Virus record (IMG/VR): IMGVR_UViG_2563366996_000005
Coordinates: 1-21,434 of that record
Reading direction: 5' to 3' (one strand)
Length of the DNA stretch: 21,434 nucleotides
Origin: a virus
Lineage: Duplodnaviria; Heunggongvirae; Uroviricota; Caudoviricetes
The first letter of the stretch is position 1; every line of letters begins with the position of its first letter. Below are positions 1,390 through 16,900 of the stretch, in pieces. Below the pieces are notes generated by a model. It searched no databases. It was not told the DNA's origin and worked only from the letters and a program-made list of their open reading frames with translations. The translations under genes were made by a program, and so were the position numbers.

Positions 1390-1971
1390 ATGAACAACTC
1401 ATGGTGGCAGGAACTAATGCATTTTTTCCTGCAAGGAATGACACTTAAACAGTTGATTCATATGCTAATCATCCTGATCATATTGATTATTGTTATGCCT
1501 GTAAGCGTAAAAGAATGGATAAACCTGCATAATCCAGAAATCCTTCCTCATTACTGGATGTATTACATCCTGTTGTTTTGCGTTAGCTATGTGCTTAACG
1601 GCGTTGTTAATTCCGCTTATCACGCTGTGACTGTAAGAATTGAGATATTCGCTGCTCAGAAGCGCAAATCTAAAGAAGAGAAATACGTGCAAGATTTGTT
1701 TGATTCGTTAACTCTTGGAGAAAGAGCGTATTTGGCATTCGCTGTAGCCGCTAATAACCAGCTAAAGACAGAAAAGGGAAGCCCTGAAGCAATCTCATTG
1801 CTCGAAAAAGGGCTTCTTATTCGGGTACCTTCTGCTACTGGATATCCTGAAATCGACCGTTTTGTTATCCCGGAACGCTATAGAAATGAGTGCTACATTA
1901 GGTTTGCTGGGAAGAAAGACAGTCTTATGGATGAACTTATCGCTCAGGATAAGCATGGCAAAAACAAGTAA
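1390..1971 (+). CDS. sieB: SieB-like superinfection exclusion protein, 193 aa, hydrophobic N-terminal segments
   Basis: Track ORF on the opposite strand to the pL genes, between ea10 and N where lambda and P22 carry sieB. Size is right (~192 aa) and the N-terminal region is very hydrophobic (LIHMLIILIILIIVMPV, YYILLFCVSYVLNGVV). Identity to lambda SieB is recalled, not verified. Confidence 0.6.
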   Translation: MNNSWWQELMHFFLQGMTLKQLIHMLIILIILIIVMPVSVKEWINLHNPEILPHYWMYYILLFCVSYVLNGVVNSAYHAVTVRIEIFAAQKRKSKEEKYVQDLFDSLTLGERAYLAFAVAANNQLKTEKGSPEAISLLEKGLLIRVPSATGYPEIDRFVIPERYRNECYIRFAGKKDSLMDELIAQDKHGKNK

Positions 1972-7364: not shown

Positions 7365-8761
7365 TTAAATTGCATCTGCAAACTCTGGGGTTTTTCGCTC
7401 AGGTATAATTGATGAGTTGCTGTTGTCACTTTTTTTATTTTCATGATTACGAATAGCCAATGACTCATTAAAGTCTTTTGCGACTGCTGTCTCAATAAAT
7501 TCAATTTCTGAATCAGAGTGTTTTTTAACAGCTTCTTTGATCTCATCCAGAGTAACATAGAAAAACTCTTTTCTACGATTTACAAGATTGACTCTCTTTT
7601 TATCGAAGACATCATGTAGTTTTTTTTCTAATGATGGAGCGTCCTCCGAATAAATCATGGCATGTACATCAAAAATAAAAGGAACAGATGCATCACCGAG
7701 CTCATTTACACGGTCTTGCGGATCAAGACGTCGTGTCATGCCTATTTTATAAACATTCTCCCCAAAAGAACCTATGTTCGAAATAATATAAACATGACCT
7801 TGTTTGGTTTGTTGTGCCATGGATAATGCTCTTTGATGCTTTGATTCAGCCTGCGACAAACTCTGTTCTAGTTCGGCAATGCGATTTTCGAGGCGCTGCT
7901 TCATGTCACCAGTAACTTTTTCCATTTCCTTTCTTGCAGCTTCAATTGCTTTTTTATAACGGCGCTCTTCTGCCTCTGCGTCTTGCATGGCCTTTTCTAT
8001 TTCTCGTTGTGCACGCTCCTCCTCTCTCATTTGTGCCCTTATTTCTGCCTGTTCTTCTTTTTCTTTCTGTTTTTGCTCACGATATTCATGGGTAAGCCAC
8101 AATTCCTCAAGTTTTTTATTGAGGTATTTAGTGTTTATATATATGTGATTTTGCTCGTTTAGTTTATTTATGGCCTCAAATGCCTTTGTGATGCGTTCTT
8201 CCATTTTAGTGATGTTTTTCCACGTGCAATTGCTAATTGCAGCATCACATTCATTATTAAATGCTCTAGTAGTTAGCCTGATATTTCTGTCTGTCATTTT
8301 TTTACCCTCTGCTCGAGAGCCTTCAACAGTCCATTGGGTTGTACAATATACTGCGCCAGAGTGGGTTTTATCCCGCAGCATTAATTTCTGTTCATCCCTG
8401 ATGGATTTTATTTTGTTTTTAAATTGCTCTGAATCTTCAAAATTAAAATGAGGTTCGTAAAATCCTAGTTCGGCTAGCTCAACATCTTCTGAATAAATAG
8501 AAATTTGCCTTACTAGTTTATCATATATTTCTTTCTTCTCTTTATAAGTTCTTCTTAGCTCTTGGATTTGTTTATTGATACCATCCATTTTTTCAATGGT
8601 GTTTGTTAGTTCATTATTGGCATTTTCTTTTACTTTTAGGGATTCTTCTTTTATTATGGAGCATTCTTGCTCTGTTTTCTCAATAAGCTTCTTACATTCT
8701 TCTTCTACATTAAAATAATCTGCAAAGCGAGATTTGTATTCTTCATTTTTTTGATTGCTAT
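7365..8761 (-). pseudogene. 3' portion of an IS1-split gene: coiled-coil region plus C-terminal T5orf172/GIY-YIG-like domain (longest ATG-initiated remnant ORF 7365..8588, 407 aa)
   Basis: Track ORF 7365..8588. Its frame stays open upstream for another 57 sense codons with no start codon until it enters IS1 at 8762. The C-terminal motif GHVYIISNIGSFGENVYKIGMTRRLDPQDRVNELG...PFIFDVHAMIY...LEKKLHDVF...RKEFFYV is T5orf172/GIY-YIG-like by recall. The central region is a long charged coiled coil. Confidence 0.75.
8753..8761. repeat. IS1 target-site duplication, left copy (GATTGCTAT)
   Basis: This 9-bp sequence directly abuts the IS1 end at 8762 and is identical to 9530-9538. Confidence 0.9.
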
Positions 8762-8776
8762 GGTAATGACTCCAAC

Positions 8777-9280
8777 TTATTGATAGTGTTTTATGTTCAG
8801 ATAATGCCCGATGACTTTGTCATGCAGCTCCACCGATTTTGAGAACGACAGCGACTTCCGTCCCAGCCGTGCCAGGTGCTGCCTCAGATTCAGGTTATGC
8901 CGCTCAATTCGCTGCGTATATCGCTTGCTGATTACGTGCAGCTTTCCCTTCAGGCGGGATTCATACAGCGGCCAGCCATCCGTCATCCATATCACCACGT
9001 CAAAGGGTGACAGCAGGCTCATAAGACGCCCCAGCGTCGCCATAGTGCGTTCACCGAATACGTGCGCAACAACCGTCTTCCGGAGCCTGTCATACGCGTA
9101 AAACAGCCAGCGCTGGCGCGATTTAGCCCCGACGTATCCCCACTGTTCGTCCATTTCCGCGCAGACGATGACGTCACTGCCCGGCTGTATGCGCGAGGTT
9201 ACCGACTGCGGCCTGAGTTTTTTAAATGGCGGAAAATCGTGTTGAGGCCAACGCCCATAATGCGGGCGGTTGCCCGGCAT
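8777..9280 (-). CDS. insB: IS1 InsB (transposase catalytic part, made as InsAB' by a -1 frameshift)
   Basis: Track ORF; translation matches recalled IS1 InsB. Confidence 0.9.
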
Positions 9281-13272: not shown

Positions 13273-13409
13273 TGTTTGAGTTTAATATGGCAGAACTTCT
13301 TCGCCACCGCTGGGGGCGTCTGCGCTTATATCGTTTCCCCGGCTCTGTTTTGACCGATTACCGAATACTGAAGAATTACGCCAAAACACTGACAGGAGCA
13401 GGAGTATGA
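13269..13409 (+). CDS. Small protein (YlcG-like), 46 aa
   Basis: Manual translation [50 protein letters not shown]-coupled to the rusA stop. Below the track cutoff. Confidence 0.5.
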
Positions 13410-13494
13410 AGTCAGAGATAACAATCAACTAATACTGTTTTGCTGATTTTTGCTTGTAATTGGCGTTCTGGTCTGAGTTTTGTGGAGTAAGTTG

Positions 13495-13878
13495 ATGCGT
13501 GATATTCAGATGGTTCTTGAGCGTTGGGGAGCGTGGGCGGCTAATAATCATGAAGATGTGACCTGGTCGTCCATTGCCGCCGGTTTTAAGGGATTAATTC
13601 CTTCAAAAGTAAAATCTCGCCCGCAATGTTGTGACGATGACGCGATGATCATTTGCGGGTGCATGGCCCGTCTGAAAAAGAACAACAGCGATTTGCACGA
13701 TTTATTAGTAGATTATTATGTAGTCGGTATGACATTCATGTCACTGGCAGGTAAGCATTGCTGCTCTGATGGTTATATCGGGAAAAGGTTACAAAAGGCT
13801 GAGGGCATAATTGAAGGGATGTTAATGGCATTAGATATCCGGTTAGAGATGGATATCGTTGTTAATAACTCTAATTAA
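13495..13878 (+). CDS. Q: Q-like late antiterminator (short form, QuuD-like), 127 aa
   Basis: Track ORF 13480..13878. The internal ATG at 13495 has a GGAG RBS. Cys-rich ([20 protein letters not shown]). It sits in the Q position upstream of the lysis genes. DLP12 QuuD similarity is recalled. Confidence 0.75.
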
Positions 13879-13899
13879 TATGCCAATTGTTTACTAAAA

Positions 13900-13929
13900 A
13901 TTATTAAAAATGGGGCGTTGAGACGCCCC
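13900..13929 (-). terminator. Intrinsic terminator downstream of the porin gene (minus strand)
   Basis: Minus-strand hairpin GGGGCG-TCTCAA-CGCCCC followed by ATTTTTAATAATTTTT. Confidence 0.5.
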
Positions 13930-14018
13930 CAAAAATAAAGGGTAATATATAACAGAAGGTTTATATAGTTAGAAGCAAGGTTGTGCTTCTAAAGGAAGTG
14001 GCTTGAGGGAGCCACTTA

Positions 14019-14057
14019 TATGTTGGGGAGGCAACGCCTCCCGCAACATATCTTTTT
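14019..14057 (+). terminator. Plus-strand intrinsic terminator ~140 nt downstream of Q (candidate tR'-like terminator of a short late-promoter RNA)
   Basis: Hairpin GGGAGGC-AAC-GCCTCCC with flanking tatgttg/caacata extension, followed by TCTTTTT. A possible promoter TTGAGA-N19-TAATAT lies at ~13918-13948. Confidence 0.45.
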
Positions 14058-14067
14058 CGTAATCAGA

Positions 14068-15150
14068 TTAGAACTGGTAAACCAGACCTACAGCAACGAT
14101 GTCATCAGTATCAATACCAGCTGTTTTGGTAAACTTACTATCGTCAATTAAGTTGATTTTGTAATCAACAAAAGTGGACATGTTTTTATTAAAGTAGTAA
14201 GTAGCACCGACATCGACATACTTGACTAAGTCTCGGTCACCATGAACACCAAGGTCTTTACCTTTTGACTGAAGGTAAGCAACAGATGGGCGCAGACCGA
14301 AGTCAAACTGATATTGTGCTACTGCTTCAAAGTTTTGTGCTTTGTTTGCAATATGGTTATTACCAAAAACGGTCATATTCTGAGTTTCAGAATATGTGGT
14401 AGCCAGATAGATATTGTTCGCATCATATTTCAGGCCTGCAGCCCATACTTCCGCATTTTTGCCGGAGGCATTGAATTTGCTCTTACCATAGGCGACCTGA
14501 CCGTCAGTGCGATCTGATTTAGCATAGGTTGCACCCACGCCGAATCCTTCATACTCATAAGTAGTGGAGAAACCGAAACCATCACCATTGGCTTCAGTTA
14601 CGTCAGTGCGGTCATTTTTACCCTGATACTGAGCAGCAAAGTTCAGGCCATCGACCAGACCAAAGAAGTCGTTGTTACGATAAGTTGCAACACCAGTAGT
14701 GCGACCAGTCATGAACACATCTGTTTGGGTCCAGGTATCACCACCGAATTCTGGCAGGACGTCAGTCCACGCACCGATGTCGTATGCTACACCGTAGTTA
14801 CGGCCGTAATCGATTGAGCCGTAATCACCAAATTTCAGGCCTGCAAATGCAAGACGGGTTTTGTCTTTGGAAGAACCTTGAGATTCAGCGCGGTTGCCTT
14901 TGAATTCATATTCCCACTGACCGAAACCAGTCAGTTGATCGTTGATTTGGGTTTCACCTTTGAAGCCAAGACGGGCATAAGTAGTATCACCATCATCTGC
15001 ATCATTAGAGGAGAAGTAGTGCTTAGCATTAACTTTCCCGTACAGATCCAGCTTGTTACTGTCTTTATTATAAATTTCAGCTGCCTGAGCAGACATCGCC
15101 ATCAGTACTGATGCAGCTACAGCAGAAATTGCCACTGTTAATTTTTTCAT
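14068..15150 (-). CDS. Outer-membrane general porin (OmpC/OmpF/NmpC/Lc family), 360 aa with signal peptide
   Basis: Track ORF. Signal peptide [23 protein letters not shown] and a C-terminal ...VGLVYQF end typical of 16-strand porins. Gly/Tyr-rich beta-barrel pattern. Opposite strand to the Q and lysis genes. Confidence 0.9.
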
Positions 15151-15578
15151 CGTGAGCCCTTTTTTTTGAACTATTATTAAAAAATGATGTCACTGCGCGA
15201 TAAATATTCATCTAATCAATGTGATTATTTCAAGATGTAAGTTTTGGTTTCTCGTTTAATTTGTGAAGTAGATCTCTATTTTTATCTGAACTTTTTTCTA
15301 TCGAATCCTATTCATGGCTCTTGGCTGAATAAAAATAAATCTATTAGCCAATTTATATTAATGGCTGTTATTTATAAGTGCTCTATAATTTGAAGGTTCA
15401 ATTTAAATTGGCTAAAAATAACGCTGGAAATTATTTGTTGGTTATTTGTTGAGATTTGCTTATGTATTTGTAGTGGTGTTTTCAATACTCGGTAGCATTC
15501 TCGCAAATATCATTTAGTGGTTTACGTACGTAAAAAATTGGTTATGCTGTTAAGAGTGGTTACTTCGTCACACAGCTT

Positions 15579-15611
15579 AAACCCGCCGTCGAGCGGGTTT
15601 TTCCATTTTTT
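15579..15611 (+). terminator. Intrinsic terminator ~110 nt upstream of the holin gene (alternative tR' candidate)
   Basis: AAACCCGC-CGTCGA-GCGGGTTT followed by TTCCATTTTTT. Confidence 0.5.
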
Positions 15612-15723
15612 GAGTCTCGATATTAGCTGATAACCCAATACCTGAGTTATTCACTGACTCCGAGTCTGTTACGTTTCGTAGTATTCCCTCAATTTACACC
15701 CGCTTTGTCTGCGAGGTGGGGTT

Positions 15724-15939
15724 ATGAAATCCATGGATAAGTTAACAACGGGTGTCGCCTATGGCACCTCAGCAGGTAGTGCCGGGTACTGGTTTTTACA
15801 GCTGCTCGATAAAGTCACGCCCTCACAGTGGGCAGCAATAGGTGTGCTGGGTAGCCTGGTATTTGGCCTGCTGACGTACCTGACAAACCTTTATTTCAAG
15901 ATTAAAGAAGATAAGCGCAAGGCTGCGAGAGGTGAATAA
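15724..15939 (+). CDS. S: Class II holin/pinholin, phage 21 S21 type, 71 aa with dual-start motif (M1-K-S-M4)
   Basis: Track ORF. MKSMDK...[13 protein letters not shown]...[35 protein letters not shown] closely matches recalled S21. Two transmembrane segments. Confidence 0.85.
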
Positions 15940-16436
15940 TGCCTCCATCATTACGAAAAGCTGTTGCTGCTGCTATTGGTGGCGGGGCTATTGCTATAGC
16001 ATCTGTGTTAATCACTGGCCCAAGTGGTAACGATGGTCTGGAAGGTGTGAGACATAATCCTTACAAAGACATAGTTGGTGTATGGACTGTATGTTACGGG
16101 CATACAGGAAAAGACATCATTCCCGGTAAAACGTATACCGAAGCAGAGTGCAAAGCCCTCCTGAATAAAGACCTTGCCACTGTCGCCAGACAAATTAACC
16201 GGTACATCAAAGTCGATATACCGGAAACAACGCGCGGCGCTCTTTACTCGTTCGTCTACAACGTGGGTGCTGGCAATTTCAGAACATCGACGCTTCTTCG
16301 CAAAATAAACCAGGGTGATATTAAAGGCGCATGTGATCAGCTACGGCGCTGGACATACGCTGGCGGTAATCAATGGAAAGGACTGATGACTCGCCGTGAG
16401 ATTGAGCGTGAAGTCTGTTTGTGGGGGAAACAATGA
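15939..16436 (+). CDS. R: SAR endolysin (T4-lysozyme-like, R21 type), 165 aa
   Basis: Track ORF. N-terminal signal-anchor-release segment [20 protein letters not shown], then a lysozyme-like catalytic region (E...D...T pattern: [24 protein letters not shown]). Confidence 0.85.
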
Positions 16437-16900
16437 GCAGAGTAACCGCGATTATCTCCGCTCTGGTTATCTGCATCATCGTCTGCCTGTCATGGGCTGT
16501 TAATCATTACCGTGATAATGCAATCGCCTACAAAGAACAGCGCGATAACAAGGCCAGTGAACTGGAGAAGGCGAACGCCACCATTACTGACATGCAGCAG
16601 CGCCAGCGTGATGCTGATGCACTCGATGATAAATACACGAAGGAGTTAGCTGATGCGAAAGCTGAAAATGATGCTCTTCGGCGCAAGCTTGATAATGGTG
16701 GTCGGGTGCTCGTCAAAGGAAAATGCCCTGTGCCATCCTCAGCCGAAACCTCCAGCGCCTCCGGCATGGGCAATGATGCCACCGTCGAACTCTCTCCAGT
16801 TGCTGGACGAAACGTTCTCGGTATCCGGGACGGAATTATCCGCGACCAAACAGCATTGAGAACGCTTCAGGAATACATCAGGACGCAATGCCTTCGATGA
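16433..16900 (+). CDS. Rz: Rz i-spanin, ~155 aa
   Basis: Track ORF 16421..16900. The likely start is ATG 16433, ATGA-coupled to the endolysin stop. N-terminal TM segment, then a coiled-coil periplasmic domain. Confidence 0.8.
16653..16859 (+). CDS. Rz1: Rz1 o-spanin lipoprotein, embedded in the +1 frame of Rz
   Basis: Track ORF. Lipobox LIMVVGC followed by a proline-rich segment [11 protein letters not shown]. Entirely inside Rz. Confidence 0.7.

Follow-up and report, generated by a model that had tools for sequence, protein, structure and literature searches.

The window, a stretch of 21,434 nucleotides of viral DNA (IMG/VR record IMGVR_UViG_2563366996_000005), very probably carries an accessory ("moron") module of a lambda-like E. 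coli prophage, lc/nmpC-ipeX, which is inserted backwards between the late-gene antiterminator gene Q and the target of Q, the late promoter pR'. The original prediction, which placed a porin gene flanked by terminators between Q and the lysis cassette and read it as a lysogenic-conversion gene, is partly supported as a whole. Its boundaries, 13,879 to 15,723, are exact, as Q ends at 13,878 and the holin gene starts at 15,724. The gene content also stands, and different roles are assigned here to the two hairpins that had been named as terminators.

Organization and distribution of the region

The Q gene (13,495–13,878, plus strand) encodes a 127-aa antiterminator of the QuuD type (Pfam PF06530, E 9.7e-54), with 99% identity to QuuD of K-12, 79% to Q of phage 933W and a distant match to the solved Q21 structure (E 7.6e-8). 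Downstream of the porin gene, the plus strand resumes with a 71-aa holin/antiholin of the S21 (P21) type at 15,724–15,939 (PF04971, E 2e-35). A second start codon, Met4, is located at 15,733, and these dual starts agree with the annotation of phage 434B. The endolysin gene (15,939–16,436; PF00959, E 2.3e-48) and an Rz spanin gene ending at 16,900 (PF03245, E 4.1e-29), both on the plus strand, complete the lysis cassette. In the DLP12 literature, the S-R-Rz operon is placed under the control of a phage Q-type antiterminator.

The order Q, reversed porin gene and S-R-Rz is common to the K-12 prophage DLP12, phage 434B and 36 phage records. Of the 5426 complete E. coli genomes, 2393 contain at least 80% of the 2.6-kb segment, as do the 36 phage records, and each of the 80 viral contigs whose Q is 99% identical or more has an intact porin gene at a constant distance. 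This arrangement has long been known and is very common; the window holds an intact common copy, real but ordinary. In comparison with DLP12 (qsr'), the gene order is identical (quuD, nmpC on the minus strand, essD-rrrD-rzpD), and the pR' segment is identical except for one base in the upstream flank. The nmpC gene of DLP12 is, however, split by IS5 after codon 346 and silent, whereas the window has an unbroken gene, in what appears to be a complete lambda-like prophage.

The porin gene and its product

A complete general-porin gene with a signal peptide, directed against the late operon, had been predicted and is confirmed. The open reading frame at 14,068–15,150 on the minus strand encodes 360 aa, and its assignment as an Lc/NmpC-type porin agrees between Pfam, NCBIfam and structure matches. 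The Pfam Porin_1 profile (PF00267) is matched over its full length (positions 1–337 of 337, E 1.9e-151). With 521 bits, the protein scores above the cut-off of the NCBIfam "porin OmpC" subfamily (484) and below the equivalog cut-offs for PhoE and OmpF. Solved chains of OmpC, OmpK36, PhoE and OmpF align to residues 24–360, with E-values down to 6e-137, and by homology to these porins the protein is expected to fold into a 16-stranded beta-barrel trimer. It is not a chance reading frame, as many E. coli chromosomes contain the 2.6-kb segment at 100% identity.

Several hallmarks can be read directly from the translation. The signal peptide of 23 residues, encoded by 15,082–15,150, has the cleavage context AQA/AE and gives a mature protein starting with AEIYNK; the PEFGG motif of loop 3 is found at residues 133–137; and the C-terminus (...VYQF) ends in the aromatic residue Phe. 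The porin shares its Pfam family, the PEFGG motif and the C-terminal Phe with OmpC, OmpF, PhoE and Salmonella OmpD. Unlike these chromosomal porins, it is prophage-borne and is followed by a 3' untranslated region of a type that, by analogy, would repress the chromosomal paralogues.

The closest studied relative is the Lc porin of phage PA-2 (J02580), which is placed and oriented in the same way with respect to the lysis genes and has an identically annotated 23-residue signal peptide and 91% protein identity over the full length. The two are different alleles (360 aa in the window versus 365 aa for Lc). Identity to the NmpC fragments of K-12 is also 91%. On this sequence evidence, the protein is an Lc/NmpC prophage porin of the OmpC family, carried as cargo by lambda-like E. 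coli prophages.

The gene is intact in 80 of the 80 related viral loci, which together contain 14 protein alleles. The differences from PA-2 Lc fall into five patches, all in the C-terminal two thirds of the protein; from the topology of OmpF, we take these patches to be loops L4–L8. A single-sequence AlphaFold2 model, with a mean pLDDT of 32.8, was unusable for placing the patches on loops.

The porin 3' untranslated region and ipeX

The porin gene is followed, on the minus strand, by an untranslated region at 13,905–14,067 that corresponds to the regulatory RNA ipeX and consists of four stem-loops and a terminator. In the published definition, ipeX is the untranslated region from the stop codon of nmpC/lc to the Rho-independent terminator. 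With the porin stop codon included, the stretch up to the last U of the U-run measures about 167 nt, in agreement with the published length. The whole spacer between Q and the porin gene (13,879–14,067; 189 nt) is 100% identical to that of PA-2 and of phage 434B; the 434B record marks the matching segment as non-434 and carries the IS5-split nmpC of K-12 DLP12. Among phage records, this spacer occurs only in the 36 that also bear the porin. By sequence, the window carries the very 3' untranslated region on which the definition of ipeX is based, and a terminator of its own closes it before Q is reached.

This intrinsic terminator of the porin/ipeX transcript (13,906–13,929, minus strand) was detected both by the terminator scan and by folding. 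It consists of a hairpin running from 13,929 to 13,912, GGGGCGUCUCAACGCCCC, followed by AUUUUU, and has a folding energy of -13.9 kcal/mol (z -3.4). The ipeX region as a whole folds at -63.4 kcal/mol (z -8.5). Across 26 variants, 99.2% of the cells in the alignment of paired positions can pair, and changes are confined to loops, bulges or G-U pairs. The covariation test of the five ipeX hairpins over these variants found no double compensatory changes and is non-discriminating, as the diversity is too low. Support for the ipeX structure is therefore thermodynamic and from conservation. In an Rfam scan of 13,300–16,000 at a permissive threshold, no family matched the ipeX region, which says little, as the presence of an IpeX model in Rfam is not established.

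The complementary strand of ipeX hairpin 1 has terminator features of its own. On the plus strand, a hairpin at 14,018–14,051 followed by CTTTTT (-21.3 kcal/mol, z -5.1) makes 14,018–14,057 a candidate for terminating rightward transcription that comes out of Q. In some alleles the T-run is reduced to T4. A hairpin just after Q had been named as a terminator candidate. The hairpin cluster there is instead primarily the ipeX RNA, and the true terminator of the porin lies at 13,912–13,929 on the minus strand.

The ipeX literature reports that the RNA lowers the expression of OmpC and OmpF, by a mechanism that is not settled there. The RNA is missing from the listed features of the region in K-12 and in strain 118UI.

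The control region upstream of the porin gene

The porin gene and the late promoter are separated by an AT-rich divergent control region (15,151–15,520; 26–30% GC), in which the porin promoter would lie. The sigma-70 consensus scan gave no match at threshold in 15,151–15,520, and hence flagged no porin promoter. Both CRP-like sites annotated in the PA-2 record J02580 are present exactly in the window. The first of them, at 15,259–15,279, falls within the control region. The second, at 15,555–15,575 in the window, goes back to an annotation of 1986 and was set aside, as it lies inside the invariant start of the late transcript, which is common to phages without the porin.

The late promoter pR' and its candidate terminator

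The late promoter pR' is assigned by homology to 15,521–15,548 on the plus strand, where a -35 element (TTTACG), a 16-nt spacer and a -10 element (TATGCT) align base for base with the annotated pR' of 933W and VT1-Sakai. As only 8 of its 12 positions match the sigma-70 consensus, it was not flagged by the scan. The homology to these phages covers 15,520–15,602 and includes the first terminator annotated downstream of pR' in both. A perfect dyad, TTTACGTACGTAAA, at 15,521–15,534 overlaps the -35 element and is the predicted Q-binding element. Downstream, an invariant sequence (TAAGAGTGGTTAC...) at 15,551–15,573 represents the start of the late transcript. It is unchanged in seven divergent phages and in 118 viral loci, and occurs once in the window, at 15,551, where no copy is expected by chance. 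Inspection of this initial transcribed sequence by eye revealed no convincing -10-like, sigma-dependent pause element.

The hairpin that had been regarded as the second flank of the porin, just before the holin gene, belongs to this late promoter unit. The terminator at 15,579–15,611 (plus strand) is composed of a hairpin at 15,579–15,600 followed by TTCCATTTTTT, as found by the terminator scan and by folding. On homology, it is the tR' candidate and the presumed target of Q antitermination. Both hairpins named in the original prediction thus exist, but the first is hairpin 1 of the porin 3' untranslated region and the second is the Q-target terminator of pR'. The hairpin at 15,579–15,600 also forms when the predicted 57-nt RNA is folded, and the terminator scan found no other plus-strand terminator before the holin gene. 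The sole match in the Rfam scan of 13,300–16,000 was a sub-threshold, chance-level Trp_leader at this terminator.

The transcription start, at about 15,555, is transferred from the map of the Sakai Stx prophages and would apply here by analogy. Published dRNA-seq of these prophages places the pR' start adjoining Q, which fits the annotated promoter, and Term-seq of the Sakai Stx phages located an RNA 3' end 258 nt downstream of pR'. In 933W, the distance from a start just after the annotated -10 element to the second annotated terminator is equally 258 nt. The Sakai 3' end coincides with the second annotated terminator, and the counterpart of the hairpin in the window is therefore read through there at least partly. 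The terminator at 15,579–15,611 is a candidate for tR' and may be leaky.

The window shares with the pR'-tR' late control unit of 933W and Sakai Sp5/Sp15, which gives rise to the StxS RNA, the Q family, the -35 element and dyad, the -10 element, the invariant initial transcribed sequence and the first hairpin with its T-run. In the Stx phages, however, pR' overlaps the end of Q, the cargo (tRNAs, stx) is in the sense orientation, located past the terminators and Q-dependent, and the terminated RNA measures 258 nt. In the window, the cargo precedes pR' and is encoded on the other strand, where it would be Q-independent, and a single terminator precedes the holin gene.

Proposed transcription of the module

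Since the annotated pR' and terminator of Stx phages, where the start was mapped by dRNA-seq, have their homologue at 15,521–15,611, late transcription probably starts downstream of the porin gene and diverges from it. In the mechanism that we propose, the porin would be transcribed leftward in the lysogen from its own promoter within 15,151–15,520, independently of Q, and its product would be exported to take its place among the porins of the outer membrane. From the same transcript, the ipeX portion would lower OmpC and OmpF, and both effects combined would result in a remodelled porin and receptor surface. This corresponds to the classical exclusion phenotype of PA-2, whose Lc porin is expressed in lysogens. 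At its core, the lysogenic-conversion reading of the original prediction, with a changed porin repertoire and changed receptors for other phages, holds and agrees with the experimentally studied PA-2 Lc and DLP12 NmpC; expression in the lysogen and an effect on phage adsorption would be expected here by analogy.

On the other side of the control region, pR' would fire rightward, divergent from the porin promoter, and in the absence of Q this transcription would stop at 15,579–15,611. Once the prophage is induced, Q, encoded 1.6 kb away, would act in trans at the dyad and pause region, and polymerase would enter S-R-Rz. With pR' downstream of the porin gene, late transcription would never cross it. 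Only early rightward read-through past Q could run antisense into the porin, and the hairpin and T-tract at 14,018–14,057 face that direction. Late transcription had been proposed either to run antisense through the porin gene or to start downstream of it. The homology of pR' and the single copy of its transcribed element support the downstream start, and the antisense route is disfavoured.

A late promoter located directly after Q would be in the usual position, as in lambda, 82, 21 and 933W, and would send Q-modified polymerase antisense through the porin gene, shutting the porin off in lytic growth. Reverse-strand defence genes inside late operons do exist, such as tai/ati of phi80, and the spacer at 13,879–14,067 is AT-rich with several hairpins. 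We nevertheless regard this placement as very improbable. The consensus scan gave no promoter-like match in the spacer, which is found only together with the porin and so belongs to the cargo, not to the Q unit. The only copy of the invariant pR' element is the one at 15,551, accompanied by a clade-specific dyad that matches Q; moreover, relatives have anything from 0 to about 2460 nt between Q and this element, while the element stays beside the lysis genes. The "noncontiguous operon" of phi80 tai/ati resembles the module as a reverse-oriented accessory gene, expressed in lysogeny, near Q and the late genes. There, however, the late transcript crosses the gene antisense and switches it off, whereas the gene in the window would lie outside the late transcription unit.

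Two further explanations concern the porin itself. The presence of the gene is no guarantee of its expression, since the K-12 copy is silent through IS5, and the porin could be a passenger as in K-12 and B: intact, unexpressed in the lysogen and without a conversion phenotype. Literature sources call nmpC quiescent in K-12 and cite a paper on a quiescent nmpC in E. coli B. A GC content of 26–30% upstream is typical of silenced horizontally acquired DNA, and no consensus promoter was found. Such silence is unlikely here, as the IS5 that causes it in K-12 is absent, and as an open reading frame intact in all 80 loci, with its variation in discrete patches, points to ongoing selection on the protein. 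The 5' region and its CRP site are, in addition, identical to those of PA-2, from which Lc is expressed in lysogens. Moreover, ipeX transcripts have been detected in clinical isolates. The RefSeq name of the gene, "porin OmpC", and its place in the NCBIfam OmpC subfamily would also suit a chromosomal ompC paralogue lying beside prophage remnants, with no part in phage cargo. This last explanation has a negligible probability: it is refuted, as 36 deposited phage genomes (some listed with laboratory propagation hosts) and 80 viral contigs have the gene at this position, and phage genes flank it on both sides in the window.

With the module read as lc/nmpC-ipeX between Q and pR', the copy in the window adds nothing new to the lysogenic conversion of the outer membrane, for which Lc/NmpC and ipeX are already established. 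Its value lies in annotation: the RefSeq "porin OmpC" is prophage cargo, ipeX is unlisted, and the late promoter belongs beside the holin gene and not beside Q.

The gap between Q and pR' in related phages

Side observations on the gap itself could matter more. Among the 118 viral loci with the invariant pR' element, 99 have a Q match upstream. The gap from Q to the element measures 0–40 nt in 24 of these and about 590–2460 nt in the other 75, with at least 23 unrelated contents in the filled gaps. Our search of the literature found no specific earlier description of this gap as a hotspot. It is conceivable, though we put it forward only tentatively, that the gap is a general cargo slot in phages of the Q933/QuuD family, almost always filled on the reverse strand, and that the dyad is a Q-binding site co-evolving with Q. 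Placement in such a slot would leave the cargo expressed during lysogeny while keeping it clear of the late operon as well as of its terminators.

The sequence of the dyad varies between Q clades while its symmetry is kept, each clade having its own dyad at the same position, and in all 30 loci of the clade to which the window belongs, the dyad variant fits the Q clade. This clade-specific symmetry at the -35 element suggests a Q-binding site and co-evolution of Q with its site across the intervening cargo. The dyad may be the site on the DNA that antiterminators of the Q933/QuuD type recognize; in related phages, these proteins govern the release of Shiga toxin. The contents of the gap, with several defence candidates among them, include the defence system Kiwa, PDC-S20 (PifA/KAP-like), PDC-M53, PDC-S42, an HNH nuclease, two lipoproteins and many proteins without a match.

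Identity and distribution of the porin gene

The window encodes, on its minus strand, an uninterrupted ORF of 360 codons (14068–15150), whose translation is matched end to end by the Pfam family Porin_1 (E 1.9e-151) and scores above the cut-off of the OmpC subfamily in NCBIfam. The protein starts with a 23-residue signal peptide, with cleavage between AQA and AE. This is consistent with the alignments to the solved OmpC, OmpK36, PhoE and OmpF chains, which begin at residue 24. A PEFGG constriction-loop motif and a C-terminal Phe are also found. Upstream on the plus strand, the antiterminator gene Q (PF06530) ends at 13878; the P21-type holin gene (Pfam, plus strand) starts at 15724, with genes for a lysozyme and then an Rz protein after it. 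The original prediction of a complete porin gene with a signal peptide, located on the opposite strand between Q and the lysis genes, is thus confirmed.

The protein shares 91% identity with Lc of phage PA-2, whose record (J02580) annotates a signal peptide and a gene order like those of the window. The arrangement is also shared by the K-12 prophage DLP12 (quuD, nmpC on the minus strand, essD-rrrD-rzpD), in which nmpC is interrupted by IS5, whereas the window porin is not. The IS5-split segment recurs in phage 434B, where the record marks it as non-434. Many E. coli chromosomes carry the 2.6-kb segment from Q to the endolysin with 100% identity; 2393 of 5426 complete E. coli genomes contain at least 80% of it, and the full segment is present in 36 deposited phage genomes. 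An intact porin gene at a constant distance occurs in all 80 IMG/VR contigs whose Q is at least 99% identical to that of the window. Because of the Lc identity, the DLP12 arrangement, this occurrence in phages and genomes and the 80 related contigs, the gene is, judged by sequence, the Lc/NmpC prophage porin. Few prophage cargoes in E. coli are more common, and its host element is apparently a complete lambda-like prophage. Lc and NmpC have been known since the 1970s–80s, and ipeX was added in 2006; the original prediction correctly recognised an already known system. Only the cargo-slot and dyad observations described below might be new, and both lie outside the porin finding.

Fourteen porin protein alleles were found in the 80 contigs, with three main groups at 100%, ~94% and ~91% identity to the window. 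Their 44 variable positions all fall within 14068–14630 (residues ~175–360), in five patches (aa 182–187, 216–231, 263–267, 300–312 and 335–347), which are probably the surface loops L4–L8. Almost no variation is seen in the N-terminal third, the 5′ UTR or ipeX.

Late promoter pR′ and its terminator

In a distant search with 15151–15723, only 15520–15602 was common to phages without the porin. This stretch coincides with features annotated as "pR′ promoter / qut / terminator" in 933W and VT1-Sakai and aligns with them base for base: a −35 TTTACG, a 16-nt spacer and a −10 TATGCT (TATCAT in 933W), together with an invariant TAAGAGTGGTTAC and a GC-rich hairpin with a T-run. The 933W Q is 79% identical to the window Q. 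Published dRNA-seq/Term-seq data on the Sakai Stx prophages place the pR′ start adjoining Q and map a 3′ end 258 nt further on; in 933W, this matches the distance from a start just past the annotated −10 to the second annotated terminator. By transfer, the late transcript of the window would start at ~15555.

It had been proposed that late transcription either runs antisense through the porin gene or starts downstream of it. Since the pR′ homologue sits downstream and its invariant element is single-copy within the window, the second option is favoured: late transcription would diverge from the porin gene, and no crossing would be needed. The control region between the two has 26–30% GC. The DLP12 literature likewise describes the S-R-Rz operon as controlled by a phage Q-type antiterminator.

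The two predicted terminator hairpins both exist. In a terminator scan, the pR′ hairpin is the sole plus-strand candidate ahead of the holin gene. Its Sakai homologue is not the 3′ end mapped there. A variant with GAGCTGG for GAGCGGG at the 15579–15600 site, breaking a G-C pair of the stem, occurs in at least 16 of 118 viral loci sharing the pR′ element (e.g., L091, L105 and L174), all with a window-type promoter. This variant and the read-through of the homologous Sakai hairpin into a 258-nt RNA suggest that the pR′ terminator may be leaky. A CRP-binding site from the 1986 PA-2 record is found exactly at 15555–15575, inside the invariant late-transcript start; this is probably a coincidence, as that start is also present in porin-less phages.

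The Q-porin spacer and ipeX

The 189-nt spacer between Q and the porin stop codon is confined to porin-bearing phages (36/36) and is 100% identical to PA-2 and to the DLP12-type segment of 434B. On the porin strand, it folds into four stem-loops and a canonical terminator (−63.4 kcal/mol, z −8.5), the latter being GGGGCGUCUCAACGCCCC at 13929–13906, followed by AUUUUU. Counted from the stop codon, the U-run ends after ~167 nt, the size published for ipeX. In 26 sequence variants, pairing is kept in 99.2% of pair cells; changes are found in loops, a bulge and linkers or at G-U positions, and a covariation test of the hairpins in these variants gave no double compensatory change. In an Rfam scan around the Q-porin-holin region, ipeX matched no family.

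The other predicted hairpin, just after Q, corresponds to ipeX hairpin 1 (14018–14051, then C-T5; −21.3 kcal/mol). Its plus-strand face could halt unmodified polymerase leaving Q. From the placement of hairpin 1 and the porin-strand terminator, the block between the convergent Q and porin genes would have an outward-facing terminator at each end.

Proposed role in the lysogen

The gene identities, the architecture, the control-element homology and the RNA fold form the basis of the following model, drawn from the homologues. Porin and ipeX would be transcribed in the lysogen. A sigma-70 promoter scan yielded no porin promoter; the CRP-like site annotated in PA-2 is found exactly at 15259–15279. 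The porin would join the outer membrane and ipeX would lower OmpC and OmpF, altering permeability and receptor availability. Upon induction, Q would act in trans at pR′, which lies 1.6 kb from the Q gene. Classical work is said to have identified OmpC as the PA-2 receptor, with Lc-making lysogens losing OmpC.

A cargo slot between Q and pR′

Of the 118 viral loci with the invariant pR′ element, 99 have Q upstream of it. Q and the element are separated by 0–40 nt in 24 loci and by ~590–2460 nt in 75. These filled gaps contain at least 23 unrelated clusters, 21 mainly on the reverse strand; porin-ipeX is the largest cluster (32 loci). Others match Kiwa KwaB with a membrane partner, PDC-S20 (PifA/KAP-like), PDC-M53 (also present in Shigella phage SfII), PDC-S42, an HNH nuclease, an NA37-like protein, an esterase and two lipoproteins; many gap clusters and ORFs had no match in the annotation searches. 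In phages with Q933/QuuD-type antiterminators, the gap recurrently serves as a cargo slot. It spans 13879–15520 in the window; other examples are L006/L090 (SfII), L007 (PhiR40_1) and L091–L206.

A clade-specific dyad at the pR′ −35

Directly upstream of the −10, a dyad-symmetric sequence occupies a fixed position but differs from one Q clade to the next, and the transcribed element downstream is invariant. In the window, the dyad is a perfect 14-nt palindrome, TTTACGTACGTAAA (15521–15534), overlapping the −35; examples from other clades are TTTACGATCGTAAA (933W), GCGTACGC, GCGGTCCGC, TGTTATAACA and TGGAATTCCA. Co-inheritance alone could explain the association of dyad and Q clade, but the symmetry is kept through changes in both half-sites, which points to the site of a dimeric protein. 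The position of the dyad, −34 to −21, is that of the Q-binding element in lambda. The dyad is therefore a candidate binding element for Q that would co-evolve with it, a lead rather than a result.

Other features of the prophage

The best sigma-70-like match in the region (GTGACA, 18-nt spacer, CATAAT; 10/12) lies antisense inside Q (13715–13744, minus strand), resembling the lambda antisense promoter paQ. A PD-Lambda-1 defence gene (DUF4041 + T5orf172; 7365–9280, minus strand; PADLOC E 8e-190) lacks ~98 N-terminal profile residues; an IS1 transposase ORF follows, and IS1 thus appears to have truncated the gene. In strain 118UI, an intact 500-aa DUF4041 gene occupies the same relative position, between ren and the nin-region genes. 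Near the S24 repressor gene, the SieB superinfection-exclusion protein (1390–1971, plus strand; Pfam E 3e-25) is a second exclusion function of the prophage.
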